A DNA stretch of 64,000 nt from Candidatus Anoxymicrobiaceae bacterium (GCA_036845225.1 DAIUEJ010000005.1:10808-74807), one strand, 5' to 3'. Counted from the first letter of the stretch, positions 4,293 through 61,770 are shown. Made by a program: numbers and translations. The notes: a model not told the origin generated them from the sequence alone.

Positions 4293-4306
4293 CCGAATGC
4301 GCCTCC

Positions 4307-4360: not shown

Positions 4361-4423
4361 GAGGCGTTCCCGGTGGGTGCTTTCGGGCGCGTTGCTTCTC
4401 TACGGCGTCTGTGACGCCCATCA

Positions 4424-5242
4424 GTGCCTTCTCGAGTGCCGCCCCGTAGCCCGCGCCGACTGCTCCATGAACAGCCCCCTGCGAGCGCCCTCAGGGCGCG
4501 TGCTACGCGATGCGGGGTCAAGGGCTCCGGGGTCCGGCTCGCACTCGGCGCCCAGCAGTCTTCCCCAGTAATACGGGGTTGTGAGCTCTACTTCCGAGGG
4601 GATGCCGCCTTCGCCTCACCGGGCGTCTACGAATACCTGGAGCAGAACCACATCCTCTACGCCACCAGACTTCCCGCAAACCAGGTACTCTCCAGGGATA
4701 TAGAGCACCTCATGACCAGGCCGGTGGGAAGACCTCCCAAGAGACCAAGGGTTTTCTACCATGACTTCTCCTACCAGGCCACCTCCTGGAGCACGCCCAG
4801 GAGGGTGATTGCGAAGGTGGAGTGGCACGCAGGTGAGCTGTTCCCGAGGGTTGGCTTTATCGTGACCAACATGACCGCGAAAGCCAAGAACGTGGTGAGG
4901 TTCTACAACAAGCGCGGCAACTGCGAGCAGTGGATAAAGGAAGGGAAACGCACCCTTACCTGGACCAGGTTATCCTGCACCAGGTTCTCCTCCAACCAGG
5001 TGAGGCTCGCGCTGTTCGTCCTGGCGTACAACATGGGAAACTTCCTCCGCCGTTTCGCCCTTCCGAGTCAGGTCTCGCACTGGTCGCTATCCAGCATCCA
5101 GCTCAAGCTCATAAAGATTGGAGCAAAGGTGATGAGCCATTCGAGGAGGACGATCTTCCAGATGGCGGAGGTCGCCGTCCCTGAGGCGCTATTCGCCGCT
5201 CTCCTGGAGCGTATACGTTGCCTGGTCGCCGCGCCGACTTGA
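4424..5242 (+). pseudogene. IS1380-family DDE transposase, N-terminally truncated remnant (C-terminal ~215 aa only)
   Basis: Motifs RVIAKVEWHAGELFPRVGFIVTNM...FYNKRGNCEQWIKEGKRTLTWTRLSCTRFSSNQVRLALFVLAYNMGNFLRR match the IS1380-family C-terminus. The N-terminal ~60 residues of the ORF are non-homologous read-through, and no N-terminal transposase half is present. Confidence 0.7.
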
Positions 5243-5358
5243 TAGGCACAGAGGTTGTTCACATGAACGCAGAGATAACGGTCAATGGTCCTCAATCGTC
5301 ATCGAAGACGGGCTCGACAGGCAGGCGGTAACTTCGAGAAAGAGAGACGAGGGCGAGA

Positions 5359-5637
5359 TTGCGCCTCGGTAATCGGCTTCAAGGGGGTATAATGATGGCG
5401 TCGGCGGCTGGAAATGGGAAATGTCAGCTGAAAGTAATAGGCCGCTTGAAACCCCCCTTGTTTTCACCAGAAGAAACATGGGAGAAGATTGGGAATGTCG
5501 ACAACGTGGTTTTCCCTACCGGAGCAGTGGTTAGAAATGGCCGTGTCTATATTTACTATGGCGCTGCCGACAAGTTGATTGCCGCGAGATCTGTTGATCT
5601 GGCAGAGCTGTTGACCAAACTCAAGAGAAGCCCGTGA
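5359..5637 (+). pseudogene. Glycoside hydrolase family 130 (GH130), C-terminal fragment only
   Basis: NVVFPTGAVVRNGRVYIYYGAADKLIAARSVDLAELL matches the conserved GH130 C-terminus and is paralogous to the full GH130 gene at 8969-9910. Only ~90 aa are present, directly after the IS remnant. Confidence 0.6.
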
Positions 5638-5641
5638 GACC

Positions 5642-7921: not shown

Positions 7922-7931
7922 AGGGTTAGCT

Positions 7932-8966
7932 ATGCGCATTGCGATGCTCTCTCCGATTGCTTGGCGCACGCCGCCGCAACATTACGGCCCGTGGGAAAGC
8001 GTGGTCTCCCTTTTGACCGAGGGGCTGGTCTCGCGCGGCTATGATGTTACCCTCTTTGCGACCGGTGATTCGCAAACAAGCGGCAAGCTCCATGCCGTTT
8101 GCGCGCGGGGCTATGAAGAAGACCTCTCCATTATGCCAAAAGTATGGGAGGGCCTGCACATTTCGGAACTCTTCGAGCATGCTGAAGATTTCGATATTAT
8201 CCATAACAATTTTGACTTTCTACCTCTGACATACACCGGCCTTACCACCACCCCGGTCGTTACTACTATTCACGGCTTTTCATCGCCCGGGATTTTGCCG
8301 GTTTACAAGAAATACAACGGCAAGGTGTTCTATGTTTCCATCAGCGATGCCGACCGGTCGCCGGATCTGGACTATATCAAAACCATCCATCACGGCATAG
8401 ATATAAAGCAGTTTGATTTTCAGCCTGAACCGGACGATTATCTGCTCTTTTTCGGGCGCATTCACCATGACAAGGGTGCCAGAGAGGCCATTGAAATTGC
8501 CAGGGCTTGCAATAAAAAGCTGATATTGGCGGGAATCATCCAGGATGAAGCCTACTATCACCAGCACATCGAACCGCACCTGGACAACGACAATGCGGTT
8601 TATGTCGGCAGCACCGGGCCGGTTCAGCGCAACCGGCTGCTTGGCAAGGCATGCGCGCTTCTGCATCCCATAAATTTCAATGAGCCTTTCGGCCTGGCCG
8701 TTATCGAGTCCATGGCCTGCGGCACTCCTGTAATCGCCTTTAACAGGGGTAGCATGCCCGAACTTATAGAAAACGGCAAGAACGGTCTTCTCGTAAAAAC
8801 AGTGGATGAGGCAATAGGGGCTGTTGCACGCATAAAAGATATTGACCGGGTATGCTGCCGCCGCCGTGTTGAACAGCATTTCACGGTCGATCGTATGGTT
8901 GAAGAATATATTCAGGTCTATGAAACGGTTCTCGAAAAAACGAAAAGAGAGGACCACCGACACTGA
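7932..8966 (+). CDS. GT4 family glycosyltransferase (group 1)
   Basis: 344 aa: MRIAMLSPIAW...EPFGLAVIESMACGTPVIAFNRGSMPELIENGKNGLLV, the canonical GT4 C-terminal domain. Confidence 0.8.
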   Translation: MRIAMLSPIAWRTPPQHYGPWESVVSLLTEGLVSRGYDVTLFATGDSQTSGKLHAVCARGYEEDLSIMPKVWEGLHISELFEHAEDFDIIHNNFDFLPLTYTGLTTTPVVTTIHGFSSPGILPVYKKYNGKVFYVSISDADRSPDLDYIKTIHHGIDIKQFDFQPEPDDYLLFFGRIHHDKGAREAIEIARACNKKLILAGIIQDEAYYHQHIEPHLDNDNAVYVGSTGPVQRNRLLGKACALLHPINFNEPFGLAVIESMACGTPVIAFNRGSMPELIENGKNGLLVKTVDEAIGAVARIKDIDRVCCRRRVEQHFTVDRMVEEYIQVYETVLEKTKREDHRH

Positions 8967-8968
8967 CT

Positions 8969-9910
8969 ATGACTACTCAATATCCCATTATAAAACGTTA
9001 TAAAATAAATCCCATTCTCACAAAAGATGATGTCCCCTACCCTGTAGCCACGGTCCACAATGCCGGCATAGTCAGGCATGGCGGCCGCTACATTATGCTG
9101 TTCAGGTCGCACCGTTACAACGGACGCTCCATCATCGGCAGGGCCGACAGCGATGATGGTTTTTCCTTCACTGTCCATCCCAAACCCTTTCTCATACCTG
9201 CAAAGGACAACATGTTTGCAGAATATGAAGAGTTCGGAGTCGAGGACCTGAGAATCTGCCCGGTAGAGGACGACTACCTGCTTACCTACAGCGCGTATTC
9301 CCGTCACGGCGTTCGGACTGCCCTTGCGCGCACCAGAGATTTTGAAAAAGTTGAACGCATTGCGCTTATAACCCAGGCCGACCTTCGCAACGTCGTCATT
9401 TTCCCTGTAAAGTTCGGTGGCAGGTATGCGCGTCTTGACCGGCCACATTCCGAAATTTCACCCTGGTCTATCTGGATTTCCTATTCCCCCGACCTGGTTC
9501 ACTGGGGTGATTCACGGGTGATTATGAAGCCGGTTCCCTATCATTGGGATGGAATGAAAATCGGTCCCGGCGCACCGCCCTTCAAGACCGACAAGGGATG
9601 GCTGCATATTTACCATGGGGTCTTTATGACCATGGCTGGGGCGGTATATCGCCTTGGTGCGGCCCTGCATGACCTTAATGATCCGGCAGAAATCATCGGG
9701 GTTTCCGATCAGTGGATACTGCAGCCCGAGGATCCCTGGGAGGTAAGCGGCTATGTGCCCAATGTTGTTTTTAGCTGCGGCGCTGTTCCTGAAGACGACG
9801 GTACGGTAAAAATATACTGGGGCGGTGCTGATACGGTTATGTGTGCCGGTACGGCAGTGATTGATGACCTTGTACAATTATGTCTTACAAATACCAGGCC
9901 GGCGCTGTAA
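8969..9910 (+). CDS. GH130 family glycoside hydrolase / beta-mannoside phosphorylase-like
   Basis: 313 aa with a GH130 five-bladed propeller profile (ATVHNAGIV, LLTYSAYS, KGWLHIYHGV, NVVFSCGAV...IYWGGADTVMCAGTA). Confidence 0.8.
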   Translation: MTTQYPIIKRYKINPILTKDDVPYPVATVHNAGIVRHGGRYIMLFRSHRYNGRSIIGRADSDDGFSFTVHPKPFLIPAKDNMFAEYEEFGVEDLRICPVEDDYLLTYSAYSRHGVRTALARTRDFEKVERIALITQADLRNVVIFPVKFGGRYARLDRPHSEISPWSIWISYSPDLVHWGDSRVIMKPVPYHWDGMKIGPGAPPFKTDKGWLHIYHGVFMTMAGAVYRLGAALHDLNDPAEIIGVSDQWILQPEDPWEVSGYVPNVVFSCGAVPEDDGTVKIYWGGADTVMCAGTAVIDDLVQLCLTNTRPAL

Positions 9911-30726: not shown

Positions 30727-31413
30727 TCAGGCGGGCGCCACGCCCGCGGCGCTGCTGTTCAATATCGACTTGATCTCCAGGGCCGCCGCGCCGACGTCCG
30801 CCGAGGCAAAGATCGAGGAGCCCACCACCACGTTGTCCGCGCCCGCCTCGATCACCATCGGAAGGTTCTGGGCCTTGACGCCGCCGTCCACCTCCACCTC
30901 GACCGAGACGCCCAGCTCAGAGGCGTCGCGCTTGATCGCGCCGACCCGGTTGAGCATCTCGGGCATGAGCTTCTGCCCCCCGAATCCCGGGTAGACGCAC
31001 ATGACGATGACGAAGTCCACCATCGCCAGGAATGGCTTCAGCTCGAAGACCGGGACCTCCGGGCTGATGGCGAGCCCGGGTGATACCCCGAGCCCCCTGA
31101 TCGCCCGCACCACGCTCTCGCAATCGCGGCAGGACCGCAGGTGGAACGATATCCGGTCCGAGCCGGCATCCGCGAAAGTCTCGACCCACTCCGGCGGGTT
31201 GTAGATCATGAGGTGGGTATCCAGCGGGACGGCGGTCATCTTCTTGACGGCCTCGACCACGATCGGCCCGAAAGTGATGTTCGGCACGAAGTGGCCGTCC
31301 ATCACGTCAAGGTGTATGTAATCAGCGACAGGCTCGATCGCCTTGATGGCTGCGCCAAGGTTGGAGAAGTCGGCGTTCAGTATGGAGGGAGACAGCTTTA
31401 CTTTTGCGCCCAT
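30727..31413 (-). CDS. rpe: Ribulose-phosphate 3-epimerase
   Basis: MGAKVKLSPSILNADFSNLG...HLDVMDGHFVPNITFGP...; start set at MGAKVKL. Confidence 0.85.
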   Translation of the reverse strand: MGAKVKLSPSILNADFSNLGAAIKAIEPVADYIHLDVMDGHFVPNITFGPIVVEAVKKMTAVPLDTHLMIYNPPEWVETFADAGSDRISFHLRSCRDCESVVRAIRGLGVSPGLAISPEVPVFELKPFLAMVDFVIVMCVYPGFGGQKLMPEMLNRVGAIKRDASELGVSVEVEVDGGVKAQNLPMVIEAGADNVVVGSSIFASADVGAAALEIKSILNSSAAGVAPA

Positions 31414-31501: not shown

Positions 31502-32266
31502 TCAATACACGTACAGATTGCCGTACGGCCGGTGCGAGAACGGCTCCAGCTTCTTGAAGTCCTCCGGCGCGATGCCGCCGAGGTCCATCTCCGTGTCCGA
31601 AGCGAACTCCGCCAGGAGATCTGAGAGCATCTTGCGGTCGTCGTCATCCACCGGGAACTCTCGCACCTCTCTGCCCAGTTGGTGTTCCTTCAGCTCGCCG
31701 CGCACGTAGATGGTGCCACCGTGCATCCCGGTCCCGAGGTAGCTTCCCGCGACGGGGCCGGGCTCGTCACCCATTCCCAGAAGCACCAGCAGGCCACCGG
31801 CCATGTACTCTCCGAAGAAATCGCCTGCGCGGCCACCCGCGACGATGATGGGCACCTGGTCCTTGTACGACTTCATGTGAATGCCGACCCGGTAGCCCAC
31901 GTTGCCGCCGACGAACACCTTGCCGCCGCGCATCCCGTACCCGATCACGTCACCGGCGTGGCCCTTGACCACTATCTTGCCGCTGTTCATGGTGTTGCCG
32001 ACGCCGTCCTGGGCGTTCTCGTTCACGATGACCGTGGGGCCGTCCATGAAAGCGCCGAGGTCGTTGCCCGGAACACCGTTGATGACGATGCGGACCTTCT
32101 CCCGGAGCCCGTCGGCGATATACCGCTGTCCGTTTACCCCGTCGAGCACGATCTCCGCGCAGCCGTTAGAAGCCAGCTCGCGTATCATGCTGTTCAGTTC
32201 CCTGTAGTAGAGGCCGGCAGCGTCCAGAATCTTGCAGTTGTCGGTCTGCTTAGCGCTCTTTGCCAT
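31502..32266 (-). CDS. Glutamate synthase GXGXG-domain subunit (archaeal-type GltB C-terminal-domain protein)
   Basis: Repeated GxGxG beta-helix motifs (VKGHAGDVIGYGMRGGKVFVGGNVGYRVG). Confidence 0.75.
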   Translation of the reverse strand: MAKSAKQTDNCKILDAAGLYYRELNSMIRELASNGCAEIVLDGVNGQRYIADGLREKVRIVINGVPGNDLGAFMDGPTVIVNENAQDGVGNTMNSGKIVVKGHAGDVIGYGMRGGKVFVGGNVGYRVGIHMKSYKDQVPIIVAGGRAGDFFGEYMAGGLLVLLGMGDEPGPVAGSYLGTGMHGGTIYVRGELKEHQLGREVREFPVDDDDRKMLSDLLAEFASDTEMDLGGIAPEDFKKLEPFSHRPYGNLYVY

Positions 32267-32269: not shown

Positions 32270-33772
32270 CTACCTTCCCGCCGGTTTCACGCCGATTATC
32301 TCGGTCGTGCTCGCGTCCAGCCCCAGCGAGCGCAGGCGCTCCCTGTTTCCCCTGAGTGATTCTATTGCGTTTACCCCCAGCGCGCCCAGGATCTCCTTGA
32401 GCTCGAGGCTCCAGGAGTTGACCAGGTTGACCAGACGCTCGGCGCCCCAGTCCGGGTCGAGCCTGCCGGTCAGCTCGGGGCGCTGGGTGGCGATGCCCCA
32501 CGAGCAGTTGCCGGTGTAGCATTTCTGGCACAGCCTGCATCCGAGCGCTATCAGGGCCGCGGTGCCGATGCCTACCGCGTCCGCCCCGAGCGCTATCGCC
32601 TTGGCGACGTCCGCGCTCGACCTTATGCCGCCCGCCGCGATTATAGACACCCAGTTCCTGATGCCTTCGCTCCGCAGTTGCTGGTCGACCACCGCCAGCG
32701 CTATCTCGAGCGGGATCCCCACGTGGTCCCGGATGACCGCCGGGCTCGCGCCCGTGCCACCCCTGAAGCCGTCCAGGTAGATGATGTCGGCCCCCGCCCT
32801 GGCGATGCCGCTCGCGATGGCCGCGACGTTGTGGACGGTCGCGATCTTCACGGAGACCGGCTTGTACCCGGTCGCCTCCTTCAGCGCGTAGATCAACTGC
32901 CTCAGGTCTTCTATCGAGTAGATGTCGTGGTGCGGCGCAGGGCTCAGCGCGTCGGTGCCCTCGGGTATCATGCGCGTCCCGGAGACCTCGACCCCTATCT
33001 TCTCGCCCGGGAGGTGCCCGCCGATGCCCGGCTTGGCGCCCTGCCCGACCTTGATCTCGACCGCGACCCCCGCGTTGAGGTACTCGGAGTGCACCCCGAA
33101 CCTGCCGGAAGCACACTGTACGATGATGTGGTCCTTGTACGGGTAGAGCTCTCTGTGCAGCCCTCCCTCTCCGGTGTTCATGACCGTCCCGAGCTTCTCC
33201 GCCGCGATGGCGAGCGCCCGGTGGGTGTTCAGGCTCACCGAGCCGTAGGACATGCCGCTGAACATTATCGGTATGTCCAGCTTGATGTTGTTCGCCACCT
33301 TTGTCTCCAGCCGGAACTCTCCGTTCGACCTCTCGACCTTCAGGCTATCGGGCTTGCGCCCGAGGTAGGTCCTGAGCTCCATCGGCTCGCGCAGCGGGTC
33401 GATGGACGGGTTGGTCACCTGGCAGGCGTCGATGAGCAGGTGGTCGAATACGTTCAGCCACGGCAGGTCGTTGCCCATGCCGGTCAGGATCATGCCCGGC
33501 GTCTGGGCCTGCTTCCAGATCGCCTTGCGCTTGTCGACGTCCCAGGAGGAGTGCTCCCGGAAGGCGAGAGGGTTGCGCACTATCGTTATCGCTTCCTCCG
33601 GGCAGAATATCGCGCAGCGGTGGCACGCCACGCACTTGGACGAGTCCGCTGTGGTCATGCTCTGGAAATCGAAGACCCCGAAGCCGCAGTTGAGTATGCA
33701 GCGCTTGCACCTGCGGCAGCGCTCGTGGTCGACGTTGACCAGGAACTCGCTCGTGACCAGGTTGCCCGGCAT
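32270..33772 (-). CDS. Glutamate synthase FMN-binding catalytic subunit (archaeal-type), with N-terminal 2x[4Fe-4S] ferredoxin motif
   Basis: N-terminal CRRCKRCILNCG...CVACHRCAIFCP followed by a GltS FMN/TIM-barrel domain (GAKPGIGGHLPGEKI). Confidence 0.8.
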   Translation of the reverse strand: MPGNLVTSEFLVNVDHERCRRCKRCILNCGFGVFDFQSMTTADSSKCVACHRCAIFCPEEAITIVRNPLAFREHSSWDVDKRKAIWKQAQTPGMILTGMGNDLPWLNVFDHLLIDACQVTNPSIDPLREPMELRTYLGRKPDSLKVERSNGEFRLETKVANNIKLDIPIMFSGMSYGSVSLNTHRALAIAAEKLGTVMNTGEGGLHRELYPYKDHIIVQCASGRFGVHSEYLNAGVAVEIKVGQGAKPGIGGHLPGEKIGVEVSGTRMIPEGTDALSPAPHHDIYSIEDLRQLIYALKEATGYKPVSVKIATVHNVAAIASGIARAGADIIYLDGFRGGTGASPAVIRDHVGIPLEIALAVVDQQLRSEGIRNWVSIIAAGGIRSSADVAKAIALGADAVGIGTAALIALGCRLCQKCYTGNCSWGIATQRPELTGRLDPDWGAERLVNLVNSWSLELKEILGALGVNAIESLRGNRERLRSLGLDASTTEIIGVKPAGR

Positions 33773-34893
33773 CAGACATCACCTTTCAATTTCCCTATCA
33801 CTGGCTGCCCGGCATTGGGAGCCCACACTTTGTCGGGCCGCGGGCATATCTGCCTGATCGCGGCCTCCTCGCTCGCTACGTACAGGAGGTCGTCCTTCCT
33901 CGCGGCGATGAGCGGCCTCAGCTTGATACGGTCGTTCAGACCGAGCATGCCGCGGGAGAAGCCGACGATCACCGCGAACGGCCCGTTGACCAGCGCGCTG
34001 GCGTAGACCATCCGCAGCGACTCGAAGAGCTCTTTCTCGCCCGGGTCCTCGTCGATGTCGATGTCCTTCCAGAACGGCGCGGCCAGGACCTTGCAGGCCA
34101 CTTCCAGCGGGAGGCCGTGCTTGCGTATCAGCAGGTCGAACAGGTACGCCATGACCTCAGTGTCAGTAAGCAACGTGCATTCGTATCCGAACATCTCCAG
34201 GTATCTCTTGTTGATCCCATAGGATGAGATCTCTCCGTTGTGGACGACCGCCCAGTCCAGGATGTTGAACGGGTGCGCGCCGCCCCACCACCCGGGGGTG
34301 TTGGTCGGGAAACGCCCGTGGCCTATCCAGGTGTAAGCCTGGTACTCGGGCAGCTTGAAGAACTCGCCCACGTCCTCGGCGAACCCCACCGCCTTGAAGA
34401 CGCCCATGTTCTTTCCGCTCGAGAACACGAAGGTCCCCGGAACGGTGGTATTGATGGTCATCACCAGGCGGACCATGAAGTCGTCATCGCCCAGGCCCGC
34501 AGCTTCCACCAGCTCGCCGCGCGGCTTTGCGAAGTACCTCCAGAGGATGGGAGCGTTGACGATGGCCGGGGACGGCTGCGTCGGCAGGTCGCCGGCCGCC
34601 GCCACCTCCAGGCTCTCCTCGAGCAGCGACTCGCAGGCGACTTTACCGGCGCTGTCCTCGAACATGATGTGCAGCGCGTAATGGTCCGGGTAGTCGGGGT
34701 AGATCCCGTAGGCCGCGAAGCCGCCCCCCAGCCCGTTGCCACGGTCGTGGATGTTCCGCATGGACTCGATTATCTGGTCTCCGGCCATGAGGTTGCCGTC
34801 CTCGCTCATGATGCCGGAAAGGCCGCAGGCCGCGGGCACCTTGCAGGTATCTACTCTCCACTCCCTGTACTGGTCACCGAATGCCACAATCAC
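33772..34893 (-). CDS. Glutamate synthase class-II glutamine amidotransferase subunit (Ntn hydrolase)
   Basis: CGLSGIM (N-terminal nucleophile Cys region) with a GATase-2 fold sequence. Confidence 0.75.
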   Translation of the reverse strand: MIVAFGDQYREWRVDTCKVPAACGLSGIMSEDGNLMAGDQIIESMRNIHDRGNGLGGGFAAYGIYPDYPDHYALHIMFEDSAGKVACESLLEESLEVAAAGDLPTQPSPAIVNAPILWRYFAKPRGELVEAAGLGDDDFMVRLVMTINTTVPGTFVFSSGKNMGVFKAVGFAEDVGEFFKLPEYQAYTWIGHGRFPTNTPGWWGGAHPFNILDWAVVHNGEISSYGINKRYLEMFGYECTLLTDTEVMAYLFDLLIRKHGLPLEVACKVLAAPFWKDIDIDEDPGEKELFESLRMVYASALVNGPFAVIVGFSRGMLGLNDRIKLRPLIAARKDDLLYVASEEAAIRQICPRPDKVWAPNAGQPVIGKLKGDV

Positions 34894-36398
34894 TCACCCT
34901 TCCCCTTGAAGGTGTCCTTCAAGAGCTCCGCCAGCTCGTCGGAGCCCGGCTCCGCCACCGGCCCCAGGCCGAGTTTCGCCCTGGCCCTTTCGCGCGCCTT
35001 CCCGAGCACGCCCGCATTCTGGAACATCTCGATCCCCTGCCTCGTCTCCGCCGGGCCGAGCCCGCGCTCGAGCGCCATGCGCTTCGCTTCCTTCATCACC
35101 TTGACCATGCCGAAGCTGTTCGGGCACAGCTCGGTGCAGGTGCCGCACTCGAGGCACTTCCAGATGTCCTCACCCGTTATTACGCTCTCGGCCTCGCCGG
35201 CGAGAATGCTCCGGATCACGTCGTGCGGGGCGTAGCTCTCATCCACCTGCGTGACAGGGCAGTCGTTCGAGCAGGACTCGCACTCGACGCAGCGCGCCAT
35301 GGACGCGTAGTCGAACTCCAGTGGGACCAGCTCGCGTATGCGCTTGACCTCACGCCACTTGTCGAAGAACGGCTGCACGTCGATCCTGTGCATGTCGAGG
35401 CCCAGCTCAGCGGGCTCGAACCCCAGGGCGAGCGCCGCCAGTTCGGAGTAGTAGAAGACCGGTATGTTCAAGGTCTCGTGGTGCTTCTTTATCACCATCT
35501 GCTGCGTCTCGAACTGCCCGAAGCACGCCGGGCAGACCACTACGATGGCGTCGGCCCCGAGTTGCTCGAGCTCGAACAGCTTCAAGCGGGCGCTGGCCAT
35601 CGACTCCTCCGGGCTGCCGGAGCGCCCGAGCGCCTCCCCGCAGCACATGAGCTTGGAGTGGTAATCGAGGCTCTCGAGCCCGAGACACTCGGCGAGCCTG
35701 TCGAGCTTGACGGGCCTCGCCGCGTCGTCGAGCCTCACGGTCGGGCCCGGCCTCAGCAACTGGCAGCCGTTGTGCACTCCGACCGTCAGGCCGTCCATCG
35801 GCGCCACGACCTTCCGCGCGATGACGTCAGGCCCTATTTTGTCGTGGAGCACCTCGATCACGTGGTATACGGAGGTGCGGAAGTTGTACTCCAGGCCGAC
35901 TTCCGCGAGACGTTCGGCGACCTCGTTGCGAAGCTCGCTCGAGGCGTGAAAAGCCGCTATCGCCGATCGGAAAGTCGCATAGCACCCGTTGCAGGCCACG
36001 AGCAGGTCCTTGCCTTCCCTCTCGGCGAGCGCCAGGTTGCGCGCGGCGGTCAGGTACCACGCCTTCTCGGAGAGGGTCTCGACCAGGAACTTTTCCGGGC
36101 AGCACGTGAAGCCCTCGATCTCGGAGTACCTCACGCTCAGCCTCTCGAGTAGGAGGCGGAGAGACTTCTCGAGGAATGGATACCTGCCGGGGATGGTGCA
36201 CCCCCAGAAGAACACGTAATCGTCCACTTTCGCCCGTTTCCTTACTCTGCCAGTCGACTTTTCGCATTTTAGCACAGACACCAAACGGGCATACGGGCCC
36301 GTACCTTTACGAAAGCGCATCGGGGACTGCCCGCGCAATGATATCCGTCGAGCTCCATAGCGCCGGCGTCCCCCCGGCATGACACCCGCTCCCCACAA
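34890..36398 (-). CDS. HdrB-like (2x CCG domain) / HdrC-like (2x[4Fe-4S]) fused Fe-S oxidoreductase; start codon uncertain
   Basis: CCG motifs (FTCCPE, LMCCGE; CNGC, CPAC) and C-terminal ferredoxin clusters (CVECESCSNDCP; CLECGTCTELCP). Overlaps the gltB1 start by 4 nt. The N-terminal ~40 aa of the ORF are Arg-rich and may not be real. Confidence 0.65.
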   Translation of the reverse strand: MWGAGVMPGGRRRYGARRISLRGQSPMRFRKGTGPYARLVSVLKCEKSTGRVRKRAKVDDYVFFWGCTIPGRYPFLEKSLRLLLERLSVRYSEIEGFTCCPEKFLVETLSEKAWYLTAARNLALAEREGKDLLVACNGCYATFRSAIAAFHASSELRNEVAERLAEVGLEYNFRTSVYHVIEVLHDKIGPDVIARKVVAPMDGLTVGVHNGCQLLRPGPTVRLDDAARPVKLDRLAECLGLESLDYHSKLMCCGEALGRSGSPEESMASARLKLFELEQLGADAIVVVCPACFGQFETQQMVIKKHHETLNIPVFYYSELAALALGFEPAELGLDMHRIDVQPFFDKWREVKRIRELVPLEFDYASMARCVECESCSNDCPVTQVDESYAPHDVIRSILAGEAESVITGEDIWKCLECGTCTELCPNSFGMVKVMKEAKRMALERGLGPAETRQGIEMFQNAGVLGKARERARAKLGLGPVAEPGSDELAELLKDTFKGKGE

Positions 36399-36446: not shown

Positions 36447-36487
36447 GTCAAAGGAAAGCGCCCCGCCCTTGGTCGGACGGGGCGCGA
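36447..36487 (-). terminator. Intrinsic terminator downstream of glnA
   Basis: Minus strand: GC-rich hairpin gcgccccg...cggggcgc followed by CUUUCCUUU. Confidence 0.5.
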
Positions 36488-36501: not shown

Positions 36502-37839
36502 CTACAGGATCGGCAGGTAGTTATTCAGCTCGTACTCGGTCACCACAGCTCTGTACTTCTCCCACTCGACCTTCTTGTCGGTGATGAGCGAATGGAAGAC
36601 GTGCTCGCCCAGGGACTCCTTCAGCAGCTCGCTGTTCTCGGCGAGCTTGATGGCCTCCCAGAGGTCTTCGGGGAGGCTCTTGATGCCCAGGGACTCGCGC
36701 TCCTCTTCCGGCATCTCGTAGATGTTTCGCTCGATCGGGGCCTCCAGGTCCAGGTCGTCCTCGATCCCTTTCAGGCCGGCGGCCAGCATGACCGAGAAGG
36801 CGAGGTACGGGTTGCATGCCGGGTCGGGCGAGCGGAGCTCGATCCGGGTCGAGTTCTCCTTGCCGGGCTTGTAGGTCGGCACCCTGATGAGGTCGGACCG
36901 GTTGCGCTGCGCCCAGGAAAGGTATACCGGCGCCTCGTAGCCGGGCACCAGCCGCTTGTAGGAGTTCACGAACTGGTTCGTGACCAGGCAGAACTCCTGG
37001 GCGTACTTGAGCAGCCCCGCGATGAAGGCCTTGGCCTCATGTGTGAGGTAGTACTGGTCTTTCGGGTCGAAGAACGCGTTCCTGTCACCTTTGAACAGGG
37101 ACATATGCGTGTGCATCCCGCTTCCGTTCTCATCGGACAGGGGCTTGGGCATGAACGTCGCGTGGACGCCCTGCTTGATCGCAACTTCTTTGACGACGAG
37201 CCTGTAGGTCATGGCATTGTCGGCCATCTGGAGCGCGTCAGTGTAGCGCAGGTCGATCTCGTGCTGGCTCGGCCCGACCTCGTGGTGCGAGTACTCGACG
37301 CCGATGCCCATCTCCTCGAGGGTGAGGACGGTCTCGCGCCTGAGGTCGCTCGCCACGTCAAGCGGAGTGAGGTCGAAATAGCCGCCCCGGTCCAGTGTCA
37401 CCGGCGGGGGCTCGGAGTCCGCGAAGTAGTAGTACTCGAGCTCCGGTCCGACGTAGAAGGTGTATCCGAGCTCCTGCGCCTTCTTCAGGTTGCGCCGCAG
37501 CACGAAGCGCGGGTCGCCCTGGTGGGGGCTCCTGTCAGGCTCGAGGATGTCGCAGAACATCCTCGCAACCGCGCTGTGGCCGCTAGGGCGCCAGGGCAGC
37601 AGGGCGAACGTCGACGGGTCAGGCTGGGCGATCATGTCGCTCTCGTCGATCCTGGCGAAGCCCTGGATGCTCGAGCCGTCGAAGCCCATGCCGTTTTCCA
37701 GTGCCTCCTCGAGCTCTTCCCTGGTTATGGCGAAGCTCTTCAGGAAGCCGAGGATGTCCGTGAACCACAGCCGTATGAACTTCACGTCGTGCTCGCGCAC
37801 CGCTTCCAGAACGTAGTCGTTGTCCGGGCCTGATACCAT
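36502..37839 (-). CDS. glnA: Glutamine synthetase type I
   Basis: 445 aa; GS beta-grasp and catalytic domains (FDGSSI; KPLSDENGSGMHTHMSLF). Confidence 0.9.
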   Translation of the reverse strand: MVSGPDNDYVLEAVREHDVKFIRLWFTDILGFLKSFAITREELEEALENGMGFDGSSIQGFARIDESDMIAQPDPSTFALLPWRPSGHSAVARMFCDILEPDRSPHQGDPRFVLRRNLKKAQELGYTFYVGPELEYYYFADSEPPPVTLDRGGYFDLTPLDVASDLRRETVLTLEEMGIGVEYSHHEVGPSQHEIDLRYTDALQMADNAMTYRLVVKEVAIKQGVHATFMPKPLSDENGSGMHTHMSLFKGDRNAFFDPKDQYYLTHEAKAFIAGLLKYAQEFCLVTNQFVNSYKRLVPGYEAPVYLSWAQRNRSDLIRVPTYKPGKENSTRIELRSPDPACNPYLAFSVMLAAGLKGIEDDLDLEAPIERNIYEMPEEERESLGIKSLPEDLWEAIKLAENSELLKESLGEHVFHSLITDKKVEWEKYRAVVTEYELNNYLPIL

Positions 37840-37981: not shown

Positions 37982-38653
37982 CTACTTGCCGGTGAACCGG
38001 TAGCCTACTCCGTGGACCGTCTCTATGTACTGGCGAGAGGTCTCGATCTTCGCCCGCAGGCGCCGGATGTGGACGTCCACCGTCCTCGTCCCGCCAAAGT
38101 AGTCGTATCCCCAGATGCTCTTCAGCAGTTCTTCCCTGGTGTACGCGCGGCCCGGGGTCGCCGCCAGCATCTTGAGGAGTTCGTACTCCTTGTACGTCAG
38201 GTCCAGCGGCTTGCCGGCGAGCACGACCTGGTGCGCGTCCATGTTGATGACCAGGTCGTCAAAGGCCATCACGTTGCCTTCCCTGCCTCTCCTGATGCCC
38301 ATGATCCGCACCCGTGATACGACCTCCAGTGCCGTTCCGGGGCTGACCACGAAATCATCGAAGTATTTGAGCGTCTCAATTTCGGAGAGGAGCCCGGCAT
38401 CCCTCAGTGCGGCCATCAGTGGGATCCTGGAAGCCCAACCGCCGACCTTCTGCATGGCGTTCCTGGCGGCGCGGGCCTGGTGAACGTGCGGGCTCACGAT
38501 GAGGACCGCGGCGAAGCTGTCGTCCAGCACCGTCTCCAGGTCATCTGATTTTTCAAAGCCCAGGACGGTGAGCCCGAGGTCCCTCAGCCCCTCCTCGAGG
38601 GACGCGGAGTAATCGGACCCGTCGCCGCAGAAGGCTATGCTCTCGTCGTTCAC
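37982..38653 (-). CDS. OmpR-family winged-helix response regulator with atypical receiver domain (GlnR-like candidate nitrogen regulator)
   Basis: C-terminal trans_reg_C (LTYKEYELLKMLAATPGRAYTREELLKSIWGYDYFGGTRTVDVHIRRLRAKI...GVGYRF). The N-terminal receiver lacks an obvious cognate kinase nearby. It is adjacent to glnA. Confidence 0.6.
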   Translation of the reverse strand: MNDESIAFCGDGSDYSASLEEGLRDLGLTVLGFEKSDDLETVLDDSFAAVLIVSPHVHQARAARNAMQKVGGWASRIPLMAALRDAGLLSEIETLKYFDDFVVSPGTALEVVSRVRIMGIRRGREGNVMAFDDLVINMDAHQVVLAGKPLDLTYKEYELLKMLAATPGRAYTREELLKSIWGYDYFGGTRTVDVHIRRLRAKIETSRQYIETVHGVGYRFTGK

Positions 38654-56528: not shown

Positions 56529-57428
56529 TCACCGTGGCGGCCGGTCGCCAGGTGCCAGGCTTTCCTCATAGGCGGGATCCGTCCAGCAGAGAGGCCCGAG
56601 AGCTTCGGACAGGGGGTCGGAGTCCGTGCGGCTGAAGCCGAGGTGGAGGTGGCGGCGCCAGCCTTCCGAGTGGTTGAACCGCCCGGAAGCGCGGCCGACC
56701 TCGCTGCTCATGAGTTCCATGCCCTCCAGGTAGTCGAGGTCCAGGCTCTCGCGTAGCCACTCCAGTTGGCTGTGATGCATCTCCAGCAGGCGGCGCTTCT
56801 CCCCCATCACCTCCGCGGTATTGACATACTGCCCTGCCGCGACCCGCCTCCGCAGCCCGTCGAGCAGGCCGTACGGAAGCGCATGGTAGATCGTCACCTC
56901 TCCGTCCCAGGGAGGCATATCAGGCACGGTGCGGTAATCCTGGAAACCCCGCACAAACGCTGCCGCCACGACGAGCCGGCACGAGTTCTCGTGGTCAGGG
57001 TGATAGTCGCCGGGGGAATGGACGAGGATGATGCGCGGCCTCACGGAGCGGATCACTGCTGCGGCGCGCGCGACCATGTCCGGGCCGCAGGATATGCCCA
57101 TGTCGGGCGCGACCGGCCCGTGGAACTCCGCGCCCGCGGCATCGGCGGAGGCACGCGCTTCGGCGAGCCGGATCTTCGCGGTGGCCTCCCTGCTTTTGTC
57201 GACAGACCCGAGAGAGCCGTCCGACACGCTCCACATGTGGATGCGCGCCCCAGCGTTCCGCAGCATGAGCAGGGTGCCGGCCATCATGAACTCGATGTCG
57301 TCCGGGTGCGCGCCGGCCGCGAGGGCGACGAGCGCTTCGTGGTCAATCTCTGGCACCTTTGTCTCCCCTTTCCGGGACGACCAGTCAGAAGATATGCCAA
57401 GAAAAGCACTGATGGCCTGGAGGCGCAA
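56529..57428 (-). CDS. PIG-L/LmbE family N-acetylglucosaminyl deacetylase
   Basis: AHPDDIEF...HSPGDYHPDHE zinc-binding motifs; N-terminal ~35 aa of the ORF are uncertain. Confidence 0.7.
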   Translation of the reverse strand: MRLQAISAFLGISSDWSSRKGETKVPEIDHEALVALAAGAHPDDIEFMMAGTLLMLRNAGARIHMWSVSDGSLGSVDKSREATAKIRLAEARASADAAGAEFHGPVAPDMGISCGPDMVARAAAVIRSVRPRIILVHSPGDYHPDHENSCRLVVAAAFVRGFQDYRTVPDMPPWDGEVTIYHALPYGLLDGLRRRVAAGQYVNTAEVMGEKRRLLEMHHSQLEWLRESLDLDYLEGMELMSSEVGRASGRFNHSEGWRRHLHLGFSRTDSDPLSEALGPLCWTDPAYEESLAPGDRPPR

Positions 57429-57858: not shown

Positions 57859-58797
57859 TCAGACTGCATCGAGGCCTTCCATGGCGGCACGGCACGCCTC
57901 GATCTCATCGCGGCTCATCCACTCATTCTTGTCACGCTGCGTTGCAAGGGGGCTCGAGCGACCGAGCTTGCGGTCCTTGTCGAGCCACAGAGGGTTGTAT
58001 TGCAGGAGGGCGACCCTCTTCGCGCCGCTGTCTCTCAGGAATCCCGCGATCGCCTTCAGGTTCTCCTCCGTCGCGGTTATCCCTGGAATGAGCGGGACAC
58101 GGGGCAGCAGCTCGGTGCCGCGCTCGGCGCAACTCTGGAGAAGGGCCTTGAAGTTCTCGAGGATGAGGCTGTTCGACACGCCGCACTGCTCGCGGTGCAG
58201 CGCTTCGTCGTGGATCTTGATGTCAAAGTAGACCGCGTCGGCGTGCGGGAGCACGAGCCGCTCGAACCCTTCGAGCGCGAAGTACCCGCAGGTCTCGACA
58301 ATTGTATGCACGCCCTTCTCCTTCAACCTCGCCAGCAGTCGCGAGCAGTACTCCATGAAAAGAGTGGGCTCGCCGCCCGAAAGGGTCACCCCGCCCCCCG
58401 ACGTCTTGAAGAACGGCAGGTCTTTCTCGATCTCGAGGGCCACTTCCTCGACGGTCATGTGCCGGCCGACCAGCGCAAGCGCTCTGGAGGGACAGGCTTC
58501 GACGCAGTCGAGGCACATGTCACAGCGCTCGCGGTCGATGAAGCCCGGCAGGTCCCTGGACAGCGCACCGAGGCCGCACGCCTCGATGCACGCGTCGCAC
58601 GCCACGCACTCATTCTCGTCGAACGATATCTCGGCGCCGGCGCGCTTGCTCTCGGGGTTGTGGCACCAGGAACAGTCGAGCGGGCAGCCCTTGAAGAACA
58701 CCACCGTGCGGATGCCCGGCCCGTCGTCGAGGGAGTTGCCTTTGATCTCCAGTATCAGAGGCTCTCTGCCGGGCCTGTCGTCGTGCAAGAGCCCCAC
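57859..58797 (-). CDS. Glycyl-radical enzyme activating enzyme (radical SAM, with extra ferredoxin-like Cys clusters)
   Basis: GCPLDCSWCHNPE radical-SAM cluster; CVACDACIEAC and CDMCLDCVEACP auxiliary clusters. Confidence 0.85.
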   Translation of the reverse strand: MGLLHDDRPGREPLILEIKGNSLDDGPGIRTVVFFKGCPLDCSWCHNPESKRAGAEISFDENECVACDACIEACGLGALSRDLPGFIDRERCDMCLDCVEACPSRALALVGRHMTVEEVALEIEKDLPFFKTSGGGVTLSGGEPTLFMEYCSRLLARLKEKGVHTIVETCGYFALEGFERLVLPHADAVYFDIKIHDEALHREQCGVSNSLILENFKALLQSCAERGTELLPRVPLIPGITATEENLKAIAGFLRDSGAKRVALLQYNPLWLDKDRKLGRSSPLATQRDKNEWMSRDEIEACRAAMEGLDAV

Positions 58798-61770
58798 CTA
58801 GATCCCATACTCTGCGCGCTCGATCAGCTCGATCTGCATGTCCCTGTTAAGGGTCACGAAGTAAGCGTTGTAGCCGGAGATGCGGACGAGGAGGTTGCGA
58901 TAGTCCTCCGGGTGCGCCATGGCGTCGCGCAGCATATCGGTGGTGACCACGTTCATCTGCATCTGCATCCCACCGAGGTCGAAGTAAGTCTTCACGTAGG
59001 AGAACATGTTCTCCACGATGCGCTCGTGGCTGTCGGATGCTCCGGGGACCACCTTCACGTTGAAGGCGATGTTGTTGTTCATGTTTCGCGCGTCGAGGCT
59101 GGCGACGTCTCGGATGTTGTCGAGCAGGTTTGGCGAGGCGTTGGGCTCGGGGGTGAGCCCCGGGGTGAACGCCTTTCCGGCGAGCCTGCCCGATGGGAGC
59201 GCCCCGGTGAGCGTCCCGAAGGCGACGTGGTTGGACATCGACCAGAAGCCGGCGGTGTACGGGCCGCCCCTGAAGTTCCTGTGCGCGCCGTAGGTGTCGT
59301 GGGCGAACTTCGCCACCCGGTCCGCCATCGCCACGGCCTCAGCGCTGCCCGAGCCGAAAAGCGGGACCCGCTTCGTGACCATGGCATGGAGCGCCGCGTC
59401 GCTCGCGAAGTTGGTGTCGACGGCCCGCTTCAAGTCGGTGAACTTCACCTTCTTGTCGTCGTACACAAGGGTCTTGATGACCATCAGCGAGTCCGTGATG
59501 TCCGCGAGCCCTATGCAGGCCGCGCCAGACGAGTTGTAGCGCGCGCCTCCCACGGTCGCGTCCTTGCCTTCAGAAATGCAGTCATCCTGGAGCGACGAGA
59601 GCAGAGGGGTCGGCCGCAGCAGGCTGTGCGCCTCCCCGAGCATGTTGTTGTACTCCACCGAGTTGTCGATCAGGAACTTGAACTGGGTGGTGAACGCCGC
59701 GAAGAAGTCCTCGAAGGTCTCGAAGTCGCCGGCTTCGATGCTGCCGGTCTTCGGGCCGACGTCCCATTCCATGAGCGGATGGCGCCCGTTGTTCATGGCC
59801 ATCTCGAAGGCGGCGACCATGTTCATCATCATGCAGTTGGTGTGGCCCATGTGTTTGCCGGAGAGGGTCGGCTCGACGCAGCCGGTTGCCGCCCAGTCGC
59901 GCAGGTCCTCGGGTGCGTAGCCGAACTCTTCGAGCGACTTCATCACGGCGAGGTCGTTGTGCAGCGACGGTGTCGCCGCGGTGATCAGGTTCACCTCGCA
60001 TAGACGTTTAAGGTAAGCGTCCGAATTCTTCTCCGGGTTGAACCTCGCGTTCACGTTCGGGTCCCGTATGCCCAGTATCTCCGTCACCTTCAGGAAGACG
60101 TACGTCATGTCGTTGACCGCGTCCTCCCCCTCCGGCGTGACACCGCCAAGCGTTATCGCCTGGTCGGAGGAAGAGCCGCCGAACAAATAGTTTCCTATGT
60201 CCGGCACAAGGGGAAGGTGGTCCGTGCACCGCATGTAGAAGCAACCGACGAGTTCGACCGCCTTCTTGATGTATTCCTTTTTCTCCTCAGGCGTTCCCAG
60301 CTTCGCCATATCGGCCTCGAAGAACGGCTGCAGCCATTGGTCCATCCGCCCGATGGACAGCCCGGCGTTGGTGCTCTCCATATGCAGGCCGACCCATCCG
60401 ATCCAGATCGCGTTGAGGGCTTCATCCAGCGTCTCCGCGGGGTGCTCGGGGACTCTGCGGCATGTCTCCGCCAGCCTCTCGAGCTCAGCCTTTCGAACGG
60501 GGTCGGTCTCGGCAGCCGCGTCTTTCTCCGCCTGAGCCGAAAGGTTCCGAGCGTAGGCGGTGAGGCCTTCGAGGCAGAGCACCATGGCCTCGAGGGTATC
60601 CTTCTTCTCCTGGCTCGCGGAGGCATCCGCTGCCAGCTCCTGCTCTATCTCGCGGATGATCCCGCCGGTGCCCAGCCGCAGCAGCTTCGGGAAGTCGAGT
60701 ATGGTGTGCGACAGCGACGCCGTCTTCCACATGAAGTACACAGCGAAACGCTCGTCCATCTTCTGGGAGAGCGGCTGTGAGTACTTGTCGCGCACCCACT
60801 CGCGCATGTTGCGCTTCGACCAGTAGGGAAACACCTTGTGGTGGAAGGCCTCCCGCGTCTCCTCGCTTATCTCGTAGGGGTTCAGGGGGCGGCCGGGCAG
60901 CGAGCCGAGCTCTCCCCATATCATGGTGCCGTGGGTGTCGGGGTAGACCACGACCCCGATCTCTTTGGTGGTGGTGGTGCCGGCGATCAGGTCGTCCTCG
61001 CGGATTATCGGCTCGCGGTTCTCCATCAGGTATTTGTATGCCTGTGCCTGCCTGAGCGCCGGCACCCACTCCTCGCCCTGGACGTCGGTCTCGAAACCGT
61101 TCTCGAGGAACCAGTCGGTCAGGAGAGACGAGCGCTCGTGGCACACCTCGGGAGTGCGGGTGAAGTGGACGTCGAGAAAACGCTCGAGCCTGGGGAAGTC
61201 GTCGAGCGAGTATTCCGCGAGGTAGGGGTCGTCCAGGTGCTTGACCCCGGAGTCCACCCTCTCACCTTTCATCCTCACCTTATGCCGCTCCGACATCTCG
61301 CGCGACAGAGCCGGGTCGGACGGTCCGCCCATGCTGGCGCGCTCTTTCGCGTCGGCGGCTTTCGCCTTCTCCGTCAACTTCTTCTGGGTCTTGGAGAGCA
61401 CCAGGGAAAGGTAGTAGTTGAAGAGGTTCATGTACGAGAGGTTGCCCTCGAGCCTGAACTCGCTCTTCAGAAGGAGGTTCAGCATCTCGCTGGGCGGCAG
61501 ACTCAGCATCCGCTTGATGACGCTGTCGTCCCTGTAGACCATCGTGACGTCAGCGTCCGCGGGGACCGAGGAGGCCACGCGCGCCTTGCCGTCCCGGAAA
61601 GTGATGGACTGCTCGACGGTGTTCGCCTCGGTCCTGAAGCCGACCGAGAGATCGAACCAGGAGCCGTTGGTCCGCATCTCCTCTTTCAGGGAGGGCCTGT
61701 GGTTGAAGCTCCCCGCCATCATGCGCAGGAGCGCGTTCGCGAGAAGGTTCGTCGATGTGTGACCGTTCAC
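58798..61770 (-). CDS. Glycyl radical enzyme, eliminase/dehydratase type (GCVEP Cys loop), 990 aa, with N-terminal ~190-aa SCP2-like extension
   Basis: C-terminal glycyl radical motif RISGYNAYFVTL; Cys loop ATGCVEPTLSGK. N-terminus has ADVTMVYRDDSVIKRMLSLPPSEMLNLLLKSEFRLEGNLSYMNLF, which resembles the SCP2 sterol-carrier fold signature. Confidence 0.8.
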   Translation of the reverse strand: MNGHTSTNLLANALLRMMAGSFNHRPSLKEEMRTNGSWFDLSVGFRTEANTVEQSITFRDGKARVASSVPADADVTMVYRDDSVIKRMLSLPPSEMLNLLLKSEFRLEGNLSYMNLFNYYLSLVLSKTQKKLTEKAKAADAKERASMGGPSDPALSREMSERHKVRMKGERVDSGVKHLDDPYLAEYSLDDFPRLERFLDVHFTRTPEVCHERSSLLTDWFLENGFETDVQGEEWVPALRQAQAYKYLMENREPIIREDDLIAGTTTTKEIGVVVYPDTHGTMIWGELGSLPGRPLNPYEISEETREAFHHKVFPYWSKRNMREWVRDKYSQPLSQKMDERFAVYFMWKTASLSHTILDFPKLLRLGTGGIIREIEQELAADASASQEKKDTLEAMVLCLEGLTAYARNLSAQAEKDAAAETDPVRKAELERLAETCRRVPEHPAETLDEALNAIWIGWVGLHMESTNAGLSIGRMDQWLQPFFEADMAKLGTPEEKKEYIKKAVELVGCFYMRCTDHLPLVPDIGNYLFGGSSSDQAITLGGVTPEGEDAVNDMTYVFLKVTEILGIRDPNVNARFNPEKNSDAYLKRLCEVNLITAATPSLHNDLAVMKSLEEFGYAPEDLRDWAATGCVEPTLSGKHMGHTNCMMMNMVAAFEMAMNNGRHPLMEWDVGPKTGSIEAGDFETFEDFFAAFTTQFKFLIDNSVEYNNMLGEAHSLLRPTPLLSSLQDDCISEGKDATVGGARYNSSGAACIGLADITDSLMVIKTLVYDDKKVKFTDLKRAVDTNFASDAALHAMVTKRVPLFGSGSAEAVAMADRVAKFAHDTYGAHRNFRGGPYTAGFWSMSNHVAFGTLTGALPSGRLAGKAFTPGLTPEPNASPNLLDNIRDVASLDARNMNNNIAFNVKVVPGASDSHERIVENMFSYVKTYFDLGGMQMQMNVVTTDMLRDAMAHPEDYRNLLVRISGYNAYFVTLNRDMQIELIERAEYGI

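Follow-up and report, generated by a model that had tools for sequence, protein, structure and literature searches.

In Methanothermobacter, TfrB, the heterodisulfide reductase (Hdr)-like subunit of TfrAB, oxidizes the thiols coenzyme M (CoM-SH) and coenzyme B (CoB-SH) and delivers electrons to a fumarate-reducing flavoenzyme. Another Hdr-like complex, sHdr, depends on lipoate-binding proteins (LbpA), and a link through lipoamide, dihydrolipoamide dehydrogenase and NAD has been proposed for it (PMC6067878). Bacterial glutamate synthase (GOGAT) is driven by NADPH (PMC8097209), and a putative coenzyme F420-dependent split GOGAT has a FrhB-like 'subunit 4' (PMC3087415; FrhB10/FGltS groups, PMC9012536). 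For the domain-split GOGAT found in archaea and in many anaerobic bacteria, no physiological electron donor is established. Here we analyze a 64,000-nt stretch of DNA from Candidatus Anoxymicrobiaceae bacterium (GCA_036845225.1, DAIUEJ010000005.1:10808-74807; the window), in which a gene for a fused HdrB- and HdrC-like protein (hdrBC) precedes the genes gltB1, gltB2 and gltB3 of a split GOGAT; the family to which this protein belongs offers a concrete candidate for the donor.

The HdrBC-like protein is very probably a functional redox partner or subunit of the split GOGAT. A redox partnership had been proposed in an earlier reading of the same DNA (the original prediction) and is supported by linkage of the genes through phyla and rearrangements, the function itself being deduced from sequence. 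With about even confidence, we further read the protein as the fourth, electron-input subunit, which would oxidize a dithiol and pass the electrons to flavin mononucleotide (FMN).

Linkage of hdrBC to split GOGAT genes in bacteria and archaea

One genome per GTDB species was scanned for relatives of the HdrBC-like protein, the best 80 of 335 relatives were kept as loci, and glt neighbors were detected by tblastn with the proteins of the window. These loci (43-79% identity) come from Actinomycetota, Bacillota, Nitrospirota, anaerobic methanotrophic archaea (ANME)-2, Methanoperedens and Argoarchaeum. Homologs from the lineage of the window (Geothermincolia/Anoxymicrobiaceae) are 60-79% identical and those from ANME-2/Candidatus (Ca.) Methanogaster, Ca. 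Methanoperedens and Ca. Argoarchaeum 43-48%; other sources are Coriobacteriia/Anaerosomatales, Nitrospirota and, within Bacillota, Desulfotomaculum copahuensis, Peptococcaceae and Thermacetogeniaceae.

gltB1 lies directly downstream of hdrBC on the same strand at 72 of the 80 loci, and the glt genes stand in another order at four more, all from Bacillota, so that glt genes accompany hdrBC at 76 loci; all three glt genes are present at 63. No glt match was found at the other four. Three of these end 0-256 nt from hdrBC, and the fourth, L041, has a Bacillota-type arrangement (lipA, a lipoyl-domain gene, hdrBC, ilvN) cut at the upstream contig end. We considered L041 as an exception to the linkage and dismissed it, since it has the same ilvN 3' of hdrBC as other Bacillota-type clusters and its contig ends upstream.

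The four-gene module spans Geothermincolia, Coriobacteriia, Bacillota, Nitrospirota and three Methanosarcinales lineages. In most phyla hdrBC comes first, whereas L090 has it at the end and L073 and L095 have it between glt genes. Additional metagenomic loci again displayed the linkage, together with the further order gltB1-gltB2-gltB3-hdrBC. hdrBC and gltB1 overlap by 4 nt (GTGA or ATGA) or are separated by gaps of at most 15 nt in Geothermincolia, Coriobacteriia, ANME-2 and Methanoperedens. Conservation of gene order among relatives, the check named in the original prediction, is thus found: the order is either kept or permuted with the linkage intact. Pairwise identities of HdrBC follow those of GltB1, GltB2 and GltB3 (Pearson 0.95, 0.95 and 0.89) as closely as the GltB subunits follow one another (0.87-0.92), a mirror-tree correlation that is expected for any co-inherited genes and counts as supporting evidence only.

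The adjacency of hdrBC and the glt genes is not fortuitous and is far beyond chance. An Hdr-like protein of unrelated function that happens to lie beside a GOGAT is an exceedingly remote alternative, which the locus counts effectively refute, as the linkage holds at 76 of 80 loci in two domains of life with the other four ending at contig borders, at least three gene orders preserve it and the 4-nt overlaps recur. The original prediction had held that an Hdr-like gene that was variable, absent or placed elsewhere in relatives would speak for coincidence; the relatives instead have it linked, save for the four contig-end cases. One large GOGAT clade has the HdrBC-like family as its obligatory partner in the genome, the closest, HdrBC-linked clade being the one that best-hit lists for split GOGAT return.

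Other neighbors are less constant. glnA is near hdrBC at 30 of the 80 loci, which is frequent and not universal, and rpe follows gltB3 only in Geothermincolia loci (11). The block hdrBC-gltB1-gltB2-gltB3-rpe put forward earlier therefore stands for hdrBC and the three glt genes and falls for rpe, which is confined to the lineage of the window. All-versus-all clustering of 5,524 open reading frames (ORFs) from 81 loci returned only gltB1-3, glnA and lineage-specific regulators as recurrent families and no hidden small partner. Gaps in the Nitrospirota clusters hold repeats and a small zinc-ribbon ORF and no thiol carrier. In L026 these gaps (4209-4648 and 7260-8043) are unusually long, with repeat-like sequence whose translations recur on both strands (...SRESGNP... 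and ...FRGNDK...) and a zinc-ribbon ORF of 60 aa.

Organization of the locus in the window

The features of the cluster, all on the minus strand and in window coordinates, are as follows.

37982..38653 (-): regulator of the OmpR family; its receiver domain is degenerate and only the DNA-binding domain is recognizable
36502..37839 (-): glnA, glutamine synthetase type I, 445 aa, directly upstream of the hdrBC unit
36458..36485 (-): strong intrinsic terminator hairpin 3' of glnA, 11 pairs (10 G-C) with a T-rich tail
36266..36274 (-): extended -10 box (TGCTAAAAT) in the promoter of the hdrBC-gltB operon, from spacer alignment
36237..36243 (-): ribosome-binding site AAGGAAA, 9 nt upstream of GTG 36227
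34890..36227 (-): hdrBC-like gene, 445 aa, with two CCG domains and a 4Fe-4S dicluster domain (Pfam)
33772..34893 (-): gltB1, class II (N-terminal nucleophile, Ntn) glutamine amidotransferase, GATase_2, 373 aa, GTG start
32270..33772 (-): gltB2, Fer4 and FMN/Glu_synthase domains, 500 aa (Pfam)
31502..32266 (-): gltB3, GXGXG subunit, 254 aa (Pfam)
30727..31413 (-): rpe, ribulose-phosphate 3-epimerase (Ribul_P_3_epim), 228 aa, a lineage-specific neighbor

An ORF for a fusion of Hdr-like CCG and ferredoxin domains had been placed at 34890..36398 on the minus strand; the ORF is there, and Pfam finds the two CCG domains and the 4Fe-4S dicluster in it. Its start at 36398, the longest possible one (TTG), lies 171 nt too far upstream. 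The true start is GTG 36227, as judged from the length and N-terminus of the homologs (68 of 68 aligned sequences have ~445 aa and begin MxxYxxFWGC), the position of the ribosome-binding site and the conserved -10 box. The 4-nt same-strand overlap with gltB1 in the original prediction was borne out: the stop TGA of hdrBC and the start GTG of gltB1 share the tetranucleotide GTGA.

Alignment of 11 glnA-hdrBC spacers, from the window and 10 related Geothermincolia loci, shows the motif TGCTA.AAT without variation. This -10 box lies within the ORF as first drawn, downstream of 36398, which puts the transcription start inside that ORF. A generic sigma-70 scan called no promoter here, the box emerging only from the aligned related spacers; the scan missed it because the window has no good -35 element at the usual distance. 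An insertion of ~44 nt in the window displaces the -35-like TTGAAC that the relatives have. With a terminator after glnA, hdrBC-gltB1-gltB2-gltB3 forms its own transcription unit, separate from glnA. The 230-nt leader showed no sign of a riboswitch, of the glutamine type or any other: at E<=1, the region 30-39 kb matched no Rfam family.

The OmpR-family regulator upstream of glnA is conserved across Geothermincolia loci and appears GlnR-like; its Coriobacteriia counterpart has a faint match to PF21695 (GlnR_1st). In Coriobacteriia and Clostridia, an ANTAR response regulator precedes the hdrBC-gltB or glnA operons (L085:7801-9799; L081:1100-1687; L095:5582-6034), accompanied in Coriobacteriia by a PdtaS-like kinase. 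These regulators suggest antitermination control of the module in Coriobacteriia and Clostridia, with a GlnR-like protein in its place in Geothermincolia.

The regulatory setting bears on one alternative, namely that the HdrBC-like protein stands outside the electron path and acts as a redox sensor or regulator of GOGAT (a thiol switch) or as a cluster-maturation or repair factor. We hold this to be improbable. As one might expect for such a factor, hdrBC opens an operon under nitrogen regulation, next to glnA and to genes for GlnR-like or ANTAR regulators; a protein of 445 aa with four Fe-S clusters, translationally coupled to the catalytic subunits and presumably made in similar amounts, would be atypical for one, and the cluster would be left without any electron-input subunit.

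The HdrBC-like protein carries a complete HdrB-like unit

The HdrB-like half (aa 1 to ~295) contains two complete five-Cys CCG motifs (C10, C42C43, C79xxC82 and C155, C195C196, C232xxC235), whose spacings of 31/35 and 39/35 residues fit the published signature CX31-39CCX35-36CXXC. PF02754 (CCG) matches in two stretches with 91 bits against a cut-off of 20.6, which places the protein in the CCG-domain/HdrB superfamily. Two CX2CX2CX3C motifs (C313/316/319/323 and C358/361/364/368) occupy the HdrC-like half (aa ~300-445). All 18 Cys, ten in the CCG motifs and eight in the dicluster, are invariant in 68 bacterial and archaeal sequences.

Profile searches of the PDB aligned the N-terminal ~295 aa end to end with solved HdrB (E=1e-90) and residues ~300-430 with HdrC (E=5e-20). 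An AlphaFold2 model made from the 68 sequences (mean predicted local distance difference test score, pLDDT, of 91) superimposes on HdrB chains with a template modeling (TM) score of 0.92-0.94 at 1.7-1.9 Å and 35-39% identity, and on HdrC with a TM score of ~0.58; LutA and EtfD are among its structural neighbors.

The fusion falls below the cut-offs of the curated models for canonical subunits, with 257.3 bits on TIGR03288 (HdrB equivalog; cut-off 345.15), 60.4 bits on TIGR03290 (HdrC equivalog; cut-off 160, although the motifs are present) and 69.8 bits on NF004898 (TfrB; cut-off 385). ANME-2 and Bacillota orthologs, at 285 and 297 bits on TIGR03288, are likewise below it. We found no dedicated curated (NCBIfam) model for the GOGAT-linked fusion, and database names of its homologs are generic ('heterodisulfide reductase-related iron-sulfur binding cluster'). 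A HMMER scan of 1.84 billion representatives gave ~25 clusters (50% identity) of full-length B-to-C fusions at 360-660 bits, below which the list falls to ordinary HdrB proteins of ~290 aa. The GOGAT-linked family is therefore compact and well delimited.

ANME-2 loci hold, in addition, an hdrC/hdrB pair above the cut-offs (HdrB 470 against 345, HdrC 213 against 160), whereas the GOGAT-linked fusion at the same loci scores 285 (HdrB) and 68 (HdrC), both below. The co-occurrence of a canonical pair and a sub-cut-off fusion at one locus indicates two functionally distinct paralogs. The second pair was considered as a part of the GOGAT system and set aside; it is canonical by the curated cut-offs, and its adjacency may be incidental. 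Elsewhere, three proteins of ~610 aa (P0215, P0218 and P0229) have N-terminal tetratricopeptide repeats (TPR) fused to a complete HdrB-like unit with two CCG domains, an architecture that was not recognized.

HdrA-, MvhD- and HdrE-like genes were absent from the window cluster and from the neighborhoods examined, and no association of HdrABC or HdrDE type was seen. Most hosts are bacteria, which are not known to make coenzyme M or coenzyme B, both of them needed for CoM-S-S-CoB, the substrate of HdrABC and HdrDE. An HdrBC-like subunit could nevertheless tie GOGAT to a larger Hdr complex whose flavoprotein (HdrA-like or another flavin adenine dinucleotide protein) is encoded elsewhere, with GOGAT as a branch of a confurcating or bifurcating system or with a disulfide as acceptor instead of donor. 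In methanogens, hdrA is often unlinked from hdrCB, and the HdrC half contacts HdrA in solved complexes. Even so, none of the ~90 neighborhoods examined has an hdrA-like gene, dihydrolipoyl dehydrogenase is the only recurrent flavoprotein neighbor, and GltB2 is indicated as the partner both by the B-to-C order of the fusion and by its linkage to glt genes throughout; we see only a slim chance for a larger complex of this kind.

The split GOGAT subunits

gltB1 has a match to PF00310 (31.3 bits, cut-off 19.9), gltB2 to PF01645 (474 bits) and gltB3 to PF01493 (120.7 bits), and the three co-oriented genes abut or overlap by 1-4 nt. They fit the split ('archaeal-type') GOGAT architecture, and glutamate synthase activity is predicted. 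GltB1 has a conserved Cys, the putative nucleophile, in ...PAAC-GLSGIM after a leader (propeptide) of ~22 aa that would need removal; C-[GS]-x-SGI after a leader is also found in the ANME-2 and Nitrospirota orthologs. The N-terminal ferredoxin domain of GltB2 has two CX2CX2CX3C motifs (Fer4 matches at aa 12-63). Its FMN/Glu_synthase domain has a CX2CX2CX4C motif (CRLCQKCYTGNC), the four Cys of which sit at the site that holds the [3Fe-4S] cluster in the classical enzyme.

No GltD or FrhB-like subunit was found in the window cluster and its flanks or among the conserved neighbor families of the 80 loci, so the enzyme lacks the partner gene that would mark it as NADPH- or F420-dependent. A predicted role in nitrogen assimilation agrees with the neighborhood, which has glnA and GlnR-like or ANTAR regulators, and with the amtB gene of the window. 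Genes for a glutamine-dependent NAD synthetase and the AmtB ammonium transporter lie at 487-4195 (-) of the window, ~30 kb from the glnA-GOGAT cluster.

Lipoate genes beside hdrBC

The original prediction had offered a thiol/disulfide-linked GOGAT as one option, and this option gains independent support from genes for dihydrolipoyl dehydrogenase, lipoyl synthase, octanoyltransferase, a lipoyl-domain protein and lipoate-protein ligase in Bacillota and ANME-2 clusters. Two Bacillota loci have the order gltB1-gltB2-gltB3-lpd-lipB-lipA, a lipoyl-domain gene and hdrBC (L015:3203-6422; L018:3949-7826), three have glnA-gltB3-lpd, the lipoyl-domain gene and hdrBC-gltB1-gltB2 (L073:6209-7927; L095:8535-10231; also L077), and shorter forms are lpd-lipA-hdrBC (L014) and lpd-hdrBC (L017). 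The assignments exceed curated cut-offs for lpd (dihydrolipoyl dehydrogenase, TIGR01350, 563 against 409), lipA (lipoyl synthase, 392 against 310) and lipB (octanoyltransferase, 172 against 84). The lipoyl-domain protein is a stand-alone polypeptide of 76-77 aa that best matches the E2 lipoyl domains of 2-oxoacid dehydrogenases and has the motif EM(S/T)T(S/N)KA...VP(S/A)P. The hidden Markov model (HMM) seed for this domain took in two antisense ORFs; true lipoyl-domain ORFs scored top and nothing else matched. In L041:121-1293, lipA and a lipoyl domain share one open reading frame.

In one ANME-2 lineage, lplA (lipoate-protein ligase) follows gltB3 (7 loci). At L027:7091-9592, and likewise at L028, L032 and L053, gltB3 is followed by lplA and then by canonical hdrC/hdrB, and at L032 a restriction-modification insertion separates gltB3 from lplA.

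The stand-alone lipoyl-domain family has 670 matches at E<=1e-8, some of them in contexts that lack hdrBC.

Lipoyl-domain loci without hdrBC: L091:7021-10452; L092:8078-10562; L093:8178-10698; L094:1-10844

Small lipoyl proteins of this kind suggest a general dithiol carrier of anaerobes, often placed, to judge from gene neighborhoods, in glutamate or nitrogen metabolism. In Bacillota, the dithiol is most likely the 77-aa lipoyl-domain protein, which would be reduced with NAD(P)H by the co-encoded dihydrolipoyl dehydrogenase. No gene for a dithiol partner lies near hdrBC in Geothermincolia, the lineage of the window. The window does encode a PIG-L/LmbE-family deacetylase (56529-57428, -), of the family of MshB/BshB in mycothiol and bacillithiol synthesis; its presence hints weakly at synthesis of a low-molecular-weight thiol by the organism, maybe relevant to the thiol partner.

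Proposed mechanism

In the mechanism that we favor, HdrBC and GltB1-3 would assemble into one four-protein enzyme, in which two HdrB-type noncubane [4Fe-4S] clusters would oxidize a dithiol, the nature of the thiol and the direction of flow being presumed. The electrons would travel via the two cubane clusters of the HdrC half and the two [4Fe-4S] clusters of the GltB2 ferredoxin domain to FMN, which would reduce the 2-iminoglutarate that arises when 2-oxoglutarate reacts with the ammonia released or channeled by GltB1. The net reaction would be dithiol + glutamine + 2-oxoglutarate -> disulfide + 2 glutamate, and in Bacillota the chain may run from NAD(P)H to Lpd, the lipoylated domain protein, HdrBC and GltB2. 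The E0' of lipoamide, ~ -0.29 V (PMC6067878), is close to that of NADPH, the reductant of bacterial GOGAT, so that a donor of such a potential would be energetically adequate. A dithiol donor would spare low-potential ferredoxin.

Several observations weigh against this mechanism. tblastn and HMM searches found no Lpd, LipA, LipB, LplA or lipoyl-domain protein in the 64-kb window, nor were these genes found within 8-10 kb at Actinomycetota, Coriobacteriia, Nitrospirota and Methanoperedens loci. The ANME-2 loci with lplA represent one closely related lineage with copies 91-93% identical. Lipoyl-domain genes occur without hdrBC in Omnitrophica (acn-icd-mdh-lpd-lipB, the lipoyl-domain gene and an aminotransferase gene) and in Lindowbacteria (lipA, the lipoyl-domain gene and an aminotransferase gene), adjoin CcdA and a thioredoxin-like gene without hdrBC in Desulfolucanica intricata, and in a Peptococcaceae genome without hdrBC at the locus stand in a classical array (gltB-gltD-ANTAR-glnA-glnA-lipB, the lipoyl-domain gene, ilvN); a family found in hdrBC-free contexts is not a dedicated partner of HdrBC. 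A Rosetta-stone search among 150 representatives found no fusion of HdrB and Glt domains and returned only TPR-HdrB proteins, C-to-B fusions and fragments.

The main rival account, which we judge unlikely, is a GOGAT that depends on reduced ferredoxin, or on some other one-electron donor, and in which HdrBC would be a plain wire that lengthens the Fe-S chain or a docking module that steadies the complex, with no thiol chemistry at its CCG clusters. The hosts are without exception anaerobes, and anaerobes usually rely on ferredoxin as reductant; most lineages have no thiol-carrier gene nearby. GltB2 itself begins with a ferredoxin-like 2x[4Fe-4S] domain, into which ferredoxin could feed electrons with no need of HdrB. 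Moreover, the CCG-domain proteins LutA, GlcF, GlpC and SdhE act without a known thiol substrate, and the structural resemblance to LutA and EtfD agrees with such a role. A mere wire, on the other hand, would need neither five-Cys noncubane motifs that are invariant from Bacteria to Archaea nor a full-length HdrB fold with 35-39% identity to the true enzyme, and the recruitment of lpd, lipA, lipB and a lipoyl-domain gene beside hdrBC would go unexplained. That dithiol oxidation by HdrBC defines a distinct class of dithiol-dependent GOGAT, beside the NAD(P)H-, ferredoxin- and putative F420-dependent ones, with an HdrBC-type module oxidizing a protein-bound dihydrolipoyl group or an analogous dithiol, is a more tentative proposal, to which we give slightly less than even credence; such a class would be widespread, in strictly anaerobic Actinomycetota, Bacillota, Nitrospirota and methane- or alkane-oxidizing Methanosarcinales.

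A full-text literature search, with subscription journals outside its coverage, returned no paper that describes either an Hdr-like subunit or lipoate genes as part of a GOGAT cluster. What is new here is a GOGAT with a candidate electron-input module of a new type, together with a putative new role for HdrBC in metabolism. If the mechanism is correct, HdrB noncubane chemistry extends from methanogenesis and sulfur oxidation into central nitrogen assimilation, and lipoate gains a role as a redox shuttle, with stand-alone lipoyl proteins and Lpd acting as a thioredoxin-like soluble shuttle where 2-oxoacid dehydrogenases may be lacking. It would also correct 'heterodisulfide reductase' annotations that mislead metabolic reconstructions of ANME, Methanoperedens and subsurface Actinomycetota.

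Other features of the window

Two regions away from the cluster were noted. At 4424-9910 (+), a partial DDE transposase, which matches just the C-terminal half of the profile, is followed by a low-GC island (GC 0.47-0.52, compared with ~0.63) with two GT4 glycosyltransferases and a GH130 phosphorylase; the island was probably acquired horizontally. At 58798-61770 (-), a 990-aa glycyl-radical enzyme with pyruvate formate-lyase (PFL)-like and Gly_radical domains is encoded, adjacent to a 312-aa ORF at 57859-58797.

Comparison with known systems

The methanogenic HdrABC-MvhAGD complex (PDB ID: 5ODC, 7BKB, 8RVU) resembles the protein studied here in its full HdrB fold, CCG motifs and HdrC with 2x[4Fe-4S]. 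Unlike methanogenic HdrBC, the present protein joins both subunits in one chain, with B ahead of C, does not reach the curated cut-offs and is always linked to gltB1-3; in ANME-2, the GOGAT-linked fusion occurs in addition to the canonical hdrCB pair. TfrAB is a conceptual and functional analog, in which a CCG module likewise feeds a biosynthetic reduction, but its acceptor is a fumarate reductase and not GOGAT; no fumarate reductase flavoprotein (TfrA) was found near hdrBC.

The sHdr-LbpA system (PMC6067878, PMC11094781) also ties a CCG protein to a lipoylated carrier, lipoate-assembly genes and, in archaea, dihydrolipoamide dehydrogenase. It features HdrA, two HdrB/C pairs, a GcvH-like LbpA and sulfur transferases, and oxidizes sulfane sulfur. 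The system described here has a single B-C fusion, an E2-type lipoyl domain (in some lineages only), canonical LipA/LipB or LplA and GOGAT as partner, and the proposed flow would be from dihydrolipoyl to the enzyme. The sHdr set (hdrC1B1A-hyp-hdrC2B2, GcvH-like lbpA, DsrE, TusA and sLpl/LipS) was absent from the window and related loci, which do not belong to that system.

Among glutamate synthases, the putative F420-dependent split GOGAT is alike in having a three-gene GOGAT and a separately encoded fourth input subunit, which is there of FrhB type (F420/FAD/[4Fe-4S]) and here of HdrBC type with noncubane clusters; both assignments are putative. The NADPH-dependent (GltB and GltD) and ferredoxin-dependent enzymes (PMC8097209) carry out the same chemistry and share the Ntn amidotransferase, the FMN synthase domain and the GXGXG beta-helix. 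In one Peptococcaceae genome, classical gltBD occupies the site that the split genes and hdrBC take up in its relatives. In contrast to the classical enzyme, the domains are here separate polypeptides, the central domain is largely missing, GltD is absent, and GltB2 has an N-terminal 2x[4Fe-4S] domain.

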